A DNA stretch of 64,000 nucleotides from Bacteroidota bacterium. GTDB taxonomy: Bacteria; Bacteroidota; Ignavibacteria; UBA10030; UBA8401. Positions 31,304-38,796 of this stretch are shown in pieces. Each line of letters begins with the position of its first letter. The first letter of the stretch is position 1. The notes beneath the pieces are model-generated. The model was not told the origin of the DNA. It worked only from the letters and a program-made list of their open reading frames with translations, and did not search any database. The translations under genes were made by a program, and so were the position numbers. Where the stretch lies: NCBI GenBank assembly GCA_008933835.1, contig WBUG01000002.1:62929-126928 (forward strand), given 5' to 3'.

Positions 31304-32731
31304 ATGAAACGTTCTCTACCGCTTCTCCTCATTCTCCTTGTCACTTTCGGACACGCGCAACTTCCGAAATGGAACTACATCAAAGAGATCCGTTTCCCGA
31401 AGAGCGATTCGGCCTTCGCCGTCCCGTTCCTCTGCACCGTCACCTCCAGCGGTCGGCTGTACGTCATCTCCTCTGCCGCGACCTCCGTGGGCGCCCATAA
31501 CGCCATCTACTACGCCGATTCGACCGACACCGAATTCCACCGCATGGTGGACTACAACTACAACGGAGACTCCGACACTCTCACCGGAGTCTTCGGTTCC
31601 CTCCGCGGCATCGCGTCGCTCAACAACGACATCATCGTGAACGGCAGCGTACCGTACCAGCGGACGAAACCGAACACCGTCAGCACGATGTACTACTATG
31701 AGAACGGCGATACGAACCTGGTCAGCAAGTTCGGTTTCACCTTCTCCAATCCCGGGCACGGCACGTTCCATCACGGCGTCGCCGTCACGAAGGACACCAT
31801 CGCCATCGCCGGCGTCACGGCCGGTGCGTCCGGACCCGGTCCGTTCGCGCGGACGTACAACCTGACGAAGAGCATCACATCGCCTGTCCGCGGCGCGTGG
31901 ATCGGCGAGAGCAAACTGGAGGTGGGCGGCACCCACTCGGCGGGTGTCGACGTCATCCGCGACTGTGCCGTGCTCCCCGGCGGCAACTACTACGATTCGA
32001 GCACCGTCTTCTACACCTCACGCAATTCGCAGTCGGACGGCAACATCACCGGCGGAATCGCCAGCTGGACGATGGGCAAGCAGTTCCCCGGCACCTCCGT
32101 GAACCTGTACGAGAGCCAGCGGGTGGCCGACTTCGAAGGTCAGCTCTCCAGCTTTTCCACCAACATCCCGTACGGCATCACGGTGGACAAGAACGGACGC
32201 CTCTGGGTGTGCGGGACCGACTCCCTGAAGCGCTGGGTGAAGGCGTACGACGTCGCCGGCGGAACGTTCGCGACCGTGAAGTATGAGCTGCCGTCGCAGT
32301 ATGACCTCGGGAACCCGAATCCCAACGGTGCGCCGATGCGCGGTCCGGCAGACGTGGCGCTCACGCCGGACGCCCTCACGGCGTACGTGGTGGACGTCTA
32401 CACCCGCACCGCGTACCAGTTCAAGTTCGGCATCGCGCCGAACGCCGTGCGCGGCGACGCGGCGCCCTTCTCGTTCGAACTGCGGCAGAACTATCCGAAC
32501 CCCTTCAACCCGGCGACCGTCATCAGCTTCGAACTGTCGCGTTCCGGTCCGGTGCGTCTCGTCGTGGTCAACGCGCTCGGACAGCTCGTTGCGACGCTGG
32601 TGGACGGACACCGCGAGGCGGGACGGCATAACGAGACCTTCACCGCTGCCGCACTGCCGACCGGCGTCTATTTCTACACGCTGTCCACCTCCGCCGGCAC
32701 CATCACCAAGAAGATGATGCTCGTGAAATGA
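31304..32731 (+). CDS. secreted protein with T9SS C-terminal sorting domain (beta-propeller-like body)
   Basis: Signal peptide MKRSLPLLLILLVTFGHAQ. The C-terminus FELRQNYPNPFNPATVISFEL...GVYFYTLSTSAGTITKKMMLVK matches the Por secretion tail pattern. Confidence 0.75.
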   Translation: MKRSLPLLLILLVTFGHAQLPKWNYIKEIRFPKSDSAFAVPFLCTVTSSGRLYVISSAATSVGAHNAIYYADSTDTEFHRMVDYNYNGDSDTLTGVFGSLRGIASLNNDIIVNGSVPYQRTKPNTVSTMYYYENGDTNLVSKFGFTFSNPGHGTFHHGVAVTKDTIAIAGVTAGASGPGPFARTYNLTKSITSPVRGAWIGESKLEVGGTHSAGVDVIRDCAVLPGGNYYDSSTVFYTSRNSQSDGNITGGIASWTMGKQFPGTSVNLYESQRVADFEGQLSSFSTNIPYGITVDKNGRLWVCGTDSLKRWVKAYDVAGGTFATVKYELPSQYDLGNPNPNGAPMRGPADVALTPDALTAYVVDVYTRTAYQFKFGIAPNAVRGDAAPFSFELRQNYPNPFNPATVISFELSRSGPVRLVVVNALGQLVATLVDGHREAGRHNETFTAAALPTGVYFYTLSTSAGTITKKMMLVK

Positions 32732-32777
32732 GTCCGACGGGTCCGGCGGTCTCCGCCGGACCCGCCGACCGACGGCC

Positions 32778-37858: not shown

Positions 37859-38796
37859 ACCGGAACACCGTCATAGCGCTGTGGATGCTGCTGGCCGCCG
37901 TCACCGCGGGCGCACAGGAGTTCCGGAGCACCGCCACGGCGGGATTCGTGTTCCTGGAGATCCCCATGACCGCCCGCTCCGCGGCGCTCGGCGAGGCGAC
38001 GGTCGCGCTGGCGGACGCCGGTTCGTCCGGACTCTTCATGAACCCGGCCGCCATCGGCTTCATGACCGCCTCCCATTCCGTCTCGTTCTCCACCGCCCGG
38101 TGGTTCGCGGAGATCGACCATTTCGGCGGAAGCTACGCCCTGACGACGGAAGCGGGGAACTTCGGCATCACCACCGCCATCCTCGATTACGGCACCATGC
38201 CGCTCACCGTCCGGACGGGGGGAGAGCGGACGTTCGCCTCCATCGGCACCTTCACGGCGCAGGCGGCGGCGGTGGGACTCACCTACAGCCGCGCCCTCAC
38301 GGACCGGTTCTCGTTCGGTGTGGGACTGAAGTACGTGCGCGAAACGATCCACGAGTACAGCGCCTCGAACATCCTCTTCGACGGCGGCATCATCTACCAC
38401 ACCGGATTCCGTTCGCTCCGTCTCGGAGCGAGCATGATGAACTTCGGAACGAACGCGCAGTACATCAACGACCCGTTCAAGATGCCGACGCTGCTCCGGC
38501 TCGGCGTGGCGGCCGAACTGCTGGGAGGGTTCGACGAGGACCTCCGCGTCACCGGACTGGCCGAAGCGCTCCATCCCAGCGACGCGCCGGAACGGGTGAA
38601 CGCCGGCGTCGAGGTGGGACTGTACCGCATGGTCACGCTCCGCGCAGGATATAAGTTCTTCTCGGACGAGGAATCGTTCACCGCCGGCGTCGGACTGGAC
38701 GCCGCGCGGGTGATGCCGCTCGCGCTCGATGTGGCGGTGTCGCGCTACGGCCGGCTCGGCGACATCGTTCGGCTCACCATCACGGGGGCGTTGTGA
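37855..38796 (+). CDS. PorV/PorQ-family (FadL-like) outer-membrane beta-barrel protein
   Basis: Signal peptide followed by the FadL/PorV-type N-terminal motif GFVFLEIPMTARSAALGEATVALADAGSSGLFMNPAAIGF. ATGA overlap with the upstream gene. Confidence 0.5.
   Translation: MNRNTVIALWMLLAAVTAGAQEFRSTATAGFVFLEIPMTARSAALGEATVALADAGSSGLFMNPAAIGFMTASHSVSFSTARWFAEIDHFGGSYALTTEAGNFGITTAILDYGTMPLTVRTGGERTFASIGTFTAQAAAVGLTYSRALTDRFSFGVGLKYVRETIHEYSASNILFDGGIIYHTGFRSLRLGASMMNFGTNAQYINDPFKMPTLLRLGVAAELLGGFDEDLRVTGLAEALHPSDAPERVNAGVEVGLYRMVTLRAGYKFFSDEESFTAGVGLDAARVMPLALDVAVSRYGRLGDIVRLTITGAL

Follow-up and report, generated by a model that had tools for sequence, protein, structure and literature searches.

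The 64,000-nucleotide (nt) stretch of DNA analyzed here (the window; contig WBUG01000002.1, positions 62,929 to 126,928) comes from a Bacteroidota bacterium of the Ignavibacteria lineage and carries a run of six plus-strand genes, designated A to F (Table 1). A gene for a type IX secretion system (T9SS) cargo protein (A) precedes a TonB-dependent transporter gene (B), which is followed by genes for a secreted protein with a divergent T9SS C-terminal domain (CTD; C), an outer-membrane barrel of the PorV/PorQ family (D) and two small outer-membrane barrels (E and F). Comparison of this region with related loci revealed that B-C-D-E-F is the conserved unit, with A and genes of the GHL10 family as frequent additions. 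It could encode an uptake complex in which C is the consistent partner of the barrel D.

Table 1. Features of the A-F locus, with positions counted from the first nucleotide of the window.
Feature	Coordinates	Strand	Basis
Gene A, 475 amino acids (aa), NHL/SGL-type beta-propeller plus T9SS type A CTD	31304..32731	+	Profile searches
A-B spacer stem-loop, G+C-rich, without T-run	32732..32769	+	RNA fold
Gene B, 1006-aa TonB-dependent transporter	32778..35798	+	Pfam matches
Gene C, 686-aa secreted protein, divergent "C-type" T9SS CTD	35798..37858	+	Predicted model, sub-threshold tail matches
Gene D, 313-aa PorV/PorQ-family (FadL-like) outer-membrane barrel	37855..38796	+	NF033709
Gene E, 240-aa 8-stranded outer-membrane beta-barrel	38796..39518	+	
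Gene F, 238-aa small outer-membrane barrel, remote paralog of E	39518..40234	+	hhalign

An earlier reading made from the letters of the window and their open reading frames (ORFs), referred to below as the sequence-only reading, had described A to D as four consecutive genes, the last three overlapping by 1 to 4 nt. The junctions bear this out: B and C overlap by 1 nt (TGATG at 35796-35800) and C and D by 4 nt (ATGA at 37855-37858). The tight spacing continues downstream, with overlaps of 1 nt between D and E (4 nt if E starts at the GTG at 38793) and 1 nt between E and F. Independent gene calls on an identical public contig (L091, Bacteroidota_g_SpSt_333_contig_632) gave products of 475, 1006, 686, and 313 aa, followed by 240 and 238 aa. 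Between the stop codon of A and the start codon of B lie 46 nt, and the stem-loop in this spacer (-32.6 kcal/mol, z score of -3.4 versus shuffled sequences) was not called by a terminator scan. Scanning for sigma-70 promoters and intrinsic terminators yielded nothing that exceeded the shuffled expectation; the G+C content of the window is ∼0.63.

To place the locus among its relatives (numbered with the prefix L), genome contigs were searched with the C protein alone, which returned two close relatives, L001 and L002 (C identity of 78% and 69%, respectively). Five loci that were already annotated all showed the same arrangement of a transporter (∼1000 aa), C (∼680 aa), a PorV-like protein (∼313 aa), and two proteins of ∼240 aa each. 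A metagenome scan added 80 loci, and 90 sequences were labeled with local hidden Markov models. In nearly all labeled loci the genes lay on a single strand in the order B-C-D-E-F, optionally preceded by A and followed by two GHL10 genes, with C identities of 34 to 100% over ∼90 loci. Labels were assigned to B in 76, to D (next to C) in 85, to E in 69, and to F in 61 of the 90 sequences, and the median gaps from B through F were 11, 5, -4, and 3 nt. Among loci with sufficient flanking sequence, A was found upstream of B in 32/50, E together with F in 56/66, and GHL10 genes (GHL10/GHL6) in 37/52; many of the GHL10/GHL6 proteins bear type A tails. In some cases more than one version occurs on a contig or at a locus: L079 and L080 are two module copies ∼23 kb apart on the same contig (Ga0180433_10000046), and in L007 C-like and D-like genes are each present twice, an expansion by paralogs of the kind typically seen in loci for the uptake of specific substrates. 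The module, with two GHL10 genes, is also present in the complete genome AP035449, which belongs to the cultured strain Fidelibacter multiformis IA91 (phylum Fidelibacterota; PMC11652737); an alpha-amylase gene adjoins it there.

With respect to taxonomy, the C family (∼680 aa, well conserved, without a curated domain) was found at 45 to 55% identity in metagenome-assembled genomes labeled Ignavibacteria, Melioribacteraceae, or Chlorobiota. L001 and L002 are deposited as "uncultured Chitinophagaceae bacterium," a label that may be wrong. More distant C homologs labeled more narrowly than "bacterium" or "Bacteroidota" were all Ignavibacteria-type or Chlorobiota, except for one partial match in Syntrophothermus. 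Downstream of the module, L054 encodes a methyltransferase and a Cas6-like protein.

The assignment of A as a T9SS-tail cargo protein by the sequence-only reading was confirmed by profile searches: its tail (residues 397 to 472; nt 32492-32719) scored 42.7 bits against TIGR04183 (cutoff of 23) and 34.2 bits against PF18962 (cutoff of 27). As judged from these matches, A is a bona fide T9SS type A cargo. Por_Secre_tail was found in all 32 A family members scanned, SGL in 16, and NHL in 7. Likewise, the ∼1000-aa TonB-dependent receptor proposed for B was recovered by matches to CarbopepD_reg_2 (70.4 bits), Plug (29.9 bits, cutoff of 23.9), and OMP_b-brl_3 (36.6 bits, cutoff of 27), and homologs of B also match TonB_dep_Rec_b-barrel. 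The protein consists of a signal peptide, a CarboxypepD_reg-like N-terminal extension (residues 27 to 115), a plug (residues 124 to 233), and a large barrel ending in GFGF. Plug motifs were at least 80% conserved across 62 family members, and a partly conserved TonB-box-like segment, SEVVVVA, is located at residues ∼111 to 117, upstream of the plug. With plug, barrel, and TonB-box-like motif all present, B has the hallmarks of a TonB-dependent transporter, and its TonB dependence is predicted. It does not qualify as a SusC/RagA protein, since its match to TIGR04056 reached 64 bits (cutoff of 368) and was confined to the N terminus. A sequence search of the PDB with B returned no relative at an E value of ≤0.001, and no SusD-family gene was present in the 12 loci with precomputed Pfam lists.

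C itself has no Pfam match. Its signal peptide is of type I and lacks a lipobox cysteine, and an AlphaFold model (predicted local distance difference test score [pLDDT], 85.1) consists of a galactose-mutarotase-like beta-supersandwich (residues ∼25 to 400), a long helix (residues 408 to 434), an FN3-like domain (residues ∼445 to 545), and, after a flexible linker, a divergent, PorZ-tail-like tail (residues ∼592 to 686; nt 37571-37855). Invariant Trp, Arg, Asp, Glu, and Asn residues are numerous in the first domain and are compatible with ligand binding, although they are no proof of it. That C ends in a T9SS-type sorting domain, as the sequence-only reading had suggested, was borne out in part. 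The tail is recognizably related to known ones, matching the PorZ C terminus (E value of 2e-4), but it remained below the curated thresholds, with 16.5 bits against TIGR04183 (cutoff of 23), and C does not classify as type A cargo. Nor does it classify as PorZ, for which the equivalog score was 20 (cutoff of 260). Across the family, tails matched that of PorZ in 38/58 members, that of PorU in 31/58, and TIGR04183 in 36/58. A library search with C returned 692 clusters (50% identity) at an E value of ≤1e-10, mostly via the C-terminal part, so that the architecture may be common. We rejected the idea that C is a SusD analog by homology, as no SusD match was found.

Membership of D in the PorV/PorQ family, likewise anticipated by the sequence-only reading, was supported by 170.2 bits against NF033709 (cutoff of 90) over residues 29 to 310; for the D-like barrels of the distant triads described below, the scores were 135 to 231 bits. 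D remained below the equivalog cutoffs of PorQ (NF033711, 116.9 versus 220 bits), PorV (NF033710, 59 versus 250 bits), and PorV2 (NF052325, 34.3 versus 325 bits), and matched PorV of Flavobacterium johnsoniae (6h3i_F) weakly. A housekeeping PorV or PorQ was rejected as the identity of D because both cutoffs were missed; D is a separate paralog, which would more plausibly act as a dedicated dock or shuttle than as the general one.

A profile of the A tail matched 43 A homologs, 37 GHL10 enzymes, and 29 other cargo proteins in the loci, but only 12/93 C proteins, and left the C of the window undetected. The C-tail profile, in turn, matched 89/93 C proteins and only 6 other proteins, weakly; this split is partly circular, because both profiles were built from the families that they separate. 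A more independent test of the pairing of tail and barrel was provided by five distant loci drawn from the library search with C (L006, L007, L094, L095, and L096), in which the strongest segment that six proteins have in common with C, and nearly or entirely the sole one, is the C-type tail; in P0165, P0189, and P0238, it was the best-matched stretch in that search. In all five loci, the protein with the C-type tail has as neighbors a B-family transporter (264 to 285 bits, the two parts of the split gene in L095 being added up) and a D-family barrel. Scored with the C profile, the tails gave 51 to 91 bits; with the A profile, they did not exceed 18. The barrels scored 146 to 228 bits on the D profile and, in the four that were scanned, 161 to 231 bits on NF033709 (cutoff of 90), and none reached the equivalog cutoff of PorV, PorQ, PorV2, or BamG. 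In L096, a canonical tail is found on the two accompanying proteins, an M6 peptidase and a further cargo protein. By these profile comparisons, it is C, not A, that is the consistent partner of the barrel, and C has a tail class of its own. Of the cargo-receptor-shuttle unit that the sequence-only reading had thought probable for A to D, the T9SS-linked outer-membrane module therefore stands, but the unit is B-C-D-E-F, its barrel partner is C rather than A, and a bare cargo-receptor-shuttle description is too narrow. The transporter of L095 (3983-6950) is split in the gene calls into two overlapping ORFs (211 and 790 aa), which may reflect a frameshift or an assembly error.

E and F both have a signal peptide and show the fold and C-terminal aromatic residue of small 8-stranded outer-membrane barrels (OmpA/OmpW/NspA-like). 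The two proteins aligned to each other over 222 columns in hhalign (probability of 95.8%, E value of 6.6e-9). PF13505 was matched by 14/48 family members; F itself scored 26.6 bits against it (cutoff of 28.7). The word-indexed homolog search was insensitive for E (9, then 18 matches), and its structure was predicted from an alignment of 18 database proteins. E has an invariant Trp/Arg/Tyr-rich helical segment within a long loop, and its invariant residues W86, W89, Y93, E157, and W159 are found in this loop and at the ends of strands; given the usual topology of such barrels, we infer that the loop and these residues are extracellular. A PDB search with the E and F profiles gave no match. A relationship of E and F to D was rejected (hhalign probability of 8 to 12%).

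Outside the locus, the window contains several other features. Directly upstream of A, a minus-strand gene (28053-30836) encodes a 927-aa protein in which a patatin-like phospholipase is fused to POTRA and an Omp85 barrel; this adjacency is also seen in the close relative L001. Between this gene and A lies a small hydrophobic ORF (∼30905-31168, plus strand), called as 87 or 69 aa on identical public contigs. An envelope biogenesis cluster at 12800-20620 (plus strand) comprises UppS, BamA, two OmpH/Skp proteins, LpxD, an LpxC-FabZ fusion, and LpxA. At 23-8354 (plus strand), seven ORFs encode mostly multiheme c-type cytochromes, among them a NapC/NirT protein fused to cytochrome b561 and three that contain Cytochrome_C7 or MtrC/MtrF-like domains, and by its predicted products this run looks like an extracellular electron transfer cluster. 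A 368-aa ORF at 51344-52450 (minus strand) has no Pfam match. At 52900-53750 the G+C content dips to 0.51 (versus ∼0.64) over two tandem similar genes of 95 to 96 aa that by eye resemble HU/IHF-type DNA-binding proteins.

We propose that B-C-D-E-F, with A as a frequent accessory, might form one SusCD-like outer-membrane complex for nutrient uptake, assembled with the help of the T9SS, in which C would be docked by its tail on D as PorZ is on PorQ. We assign this reading a probability of roughly 50%. B would act as a TonB-energized importer. C would be exported by the T9SS through its specialized CTD and remain uncleaved on the cell surface, its CTD staying bound to the dedicated barrel D, so that the supersandwich and FN3-like domains would be held beside B as the ligand-capturing part. 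An accessory or scaffolding role would fall to E and F, with conserved loops that probably face the outside of the cell. A, joined in most other genomes by GHL10 glycosidase-like enzymes, would be ordinary type A cargo that processes or binds the substrate outside the cell. According to a review, the tails of PorU and PorZ are retained, bound to PorV and PorQ, and it is suggested there that cognate PorV-like barrels shield such tails from cleavage (PMC10202324). It is this precedent, together with that of type B cargo and their shuttles and with the matches of C tails to those of PorZ and PorU, that suggests docking of C on D beside B. The presence of a transporter, together with the sugar-binding fold in C and neighboring genes for glycosidases and sugar catabolism, suggests nutrient import. 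The substrate is probably a glycan, as indicated by the fold of C, the GHL10/GHL6 genes, and the genes that recur in the flanks (NanE in 7 loci, DUF5009 in 8, and a DUF4855-ROK fusion in 6, as well as NAGPA and FAD_oxidored), and it is possibly rich in amino sugars.

Several observations weigh against this proposal. Beyond the domain assignments, it rests on gene association and analogy, and the sharpness of the tail split is in part circular. In the window and its nearest relatives, L001 and L002, A to F are present, but no GHL10 or other glycosidase gene lies beside the module, which makes the link to glycans indirect for this genome. L049 to L054 and L082 have A-B-C-D without a recognizable E or F. 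Reports on GHL10 substrates diverge from peptidoglycan to starch: the title of one article calls Cwp19 a lytic transglycosylase (PMC6016235), while maltose production from starch was reported for DogH, a GHL10 enzyme. Finally, porK/L/M/N (gldK/L/M/N) and sov/sprA were not found among the window ORFs scanned with Pfam (a few short ORFs were left out). A functional T9SS in the host is indirectly supported by the canonical type A cargo and the PorV-family gene in the window.

The same gene association would fit equally well if D were a transient, locus-specific shuttle that takes over C, possibly along with A and the enzymes, from the T9SS translocon and passes them on, with C then being cleaved and released or lipid-anchored and B importing the products without any stable B-C-D complex. 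PorV has been described as a shuttle (PMC10202324), and type B cargo are reported to use adjacent PorP/SprF-like shuttles (PMC12618676). However, matches of C-family tails to the retained tails of PorZ and PorU are more frequent than those to the generic model (38 and 31 versus 36 of 58 members), which is a weak discriminator, and the tight, invariant placement of C between transporter and barrel suggests a stoichiometric assembly; we regard such a shuttle as unlikely. A role as a PorZ/PorQ-like accessory for T9SS attachment or biogenesis, with C delivering a surface glycan or lipopolysaccharide for cargo anchoring, would agree with the top equivalog-level match of D (PorQ, 117 bits), with the resemblance of the C tail to PorZ in both sequence and fold, and with the housekeeping envelope genes in the window (the patatin-Omp85 fusion next door and BamA/Lpx ∼12 to 18 kb upstream). 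Against such a role stand the widely missed equivalog cutoffs (117 versus 220 for PorQ, 20 versus 260 for PorZ), the invariable presence of a TonB-dependent transporter, the LacI or ROK regulators and the genes for enzymes and sugar catabolism in the flanks, and the occurrence of several paralogous triads per contig (L079/L080 and L007), as expected of substrate-specific uptake. We consider it very unlikely.

Another alternative concerns the substrate: if GHL10 enzymes cut murein, the module might import muropeptides. In favor of this are the title given to Cwp19, a GHL10 protein; the recurrence of amino-sugar genes (NanE, ROK, and NAGPA) in the flanks; and the lifestyle of strain IA91, which has the full module and two GHL10 genes and lives on exogenous muropeptides and very few other substrates (PMC11652737). 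Yet the Pfam lists for the loci contain no canonical muropeptide catabolic genes, the activity of DogH on starch and the alpha-amylase beside the IA91 locus point elsewhere, and the window itself has no GHL10 gene. Peptidoglycan fragments, although an appealing lead in view of IA91, are in our judgment an unlikely substrate. Lastly, a chance adjacency of genes with unrelated functions is effectively refuted by the start/stop overlaps and by a gene order kept in ∼90 loci from at least two phyla.

Compared with known systems, the proposed uptake complex resembles SusC/SusD utilisomes in its ∼1000-aa transporter with a CarboxypepD_reg-like extension, in the near-abutting gene for a putative surface binding protein, and in the secreted or surface enzymes and the sugar regulators found alongside. 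In contrast to these systems, it has no SusD-family or lipoprotein partner, and B fails the SusC/RagA model (see above); C combines a type I signal peptide with a T9SS-like tail, and the locus further encodes a PorV/PorQ-family barrel and two 8-stranded barrels. With the PorZ-PorQ and PorU-PorV pairs of the Porphyromonas gingivalis attachment complex, it would share a surface protein with a CTD kept on a PorV-family barrel, D scoring best against PorQ and the C tail matching PorZ and PorU. It differs from them in that C is built of a supersandwich and an FN3-like domain instead of two propellers, in the missed equivalog cutoffs, and in that the pair is part of a transporter operon and exists as several paralogs. 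Type B CTD cargo with PorP/SprF-like shuttles (SprB-SprF in F. johnsoniae) offer a parallel, as a distinct tail class is linked to its own adjacent barrel; here, however, the barrel belongs to the PorV/PorQ family, the tail has a divergent type-A-like fold, and the connection to a TonB-dependent transporter is a new feature. Bipartite TonB-dependent receptors such as TbpA/TbpB of Neisseria likewise combine an importer with a separately encoded surface protein for ligand capture. The TbpB co-receptor is a lipoprotein exported by Slam, whereas C is proposed to reach the surface via the T9SS and to be retained there by a barrel. No description of a triad of transporter, CTD protein, and PorV-like barrel was found in a full-text literature search, from whose scope subscription journals were mostly excluded.

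In a broader and more tentative view, to which we give clearly less credence than to the uptake complex as such, the C-type tail and the D-type barrel may together define a third T9SS sorting class, complete with an outer-membrane partner, alongside type A (PorV) and type B (PorP/SprF). This class would mount exchangeable ligand-binding proteins on TonB-dependent transporters and would thereby give rise to SusD-independent utilisomes, at the least in Bacteroidota of the Ignavibacteria type and in Fidelibacterota, the IA91 locus perhaps being a muropeptide gate. As IA91 is a cultured carrier of the module, the model is directly testable. If true, it would show that the TonB-dependent importers of these lineages are given surface binding proteins without a SusD-type lipoprotein, and the principle of one cognate barrel for each tail class would come to include the PorV/PorQ family. 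Type IX secretion and TonB-dependent uptake, which are usually studied apart, would also become linked.

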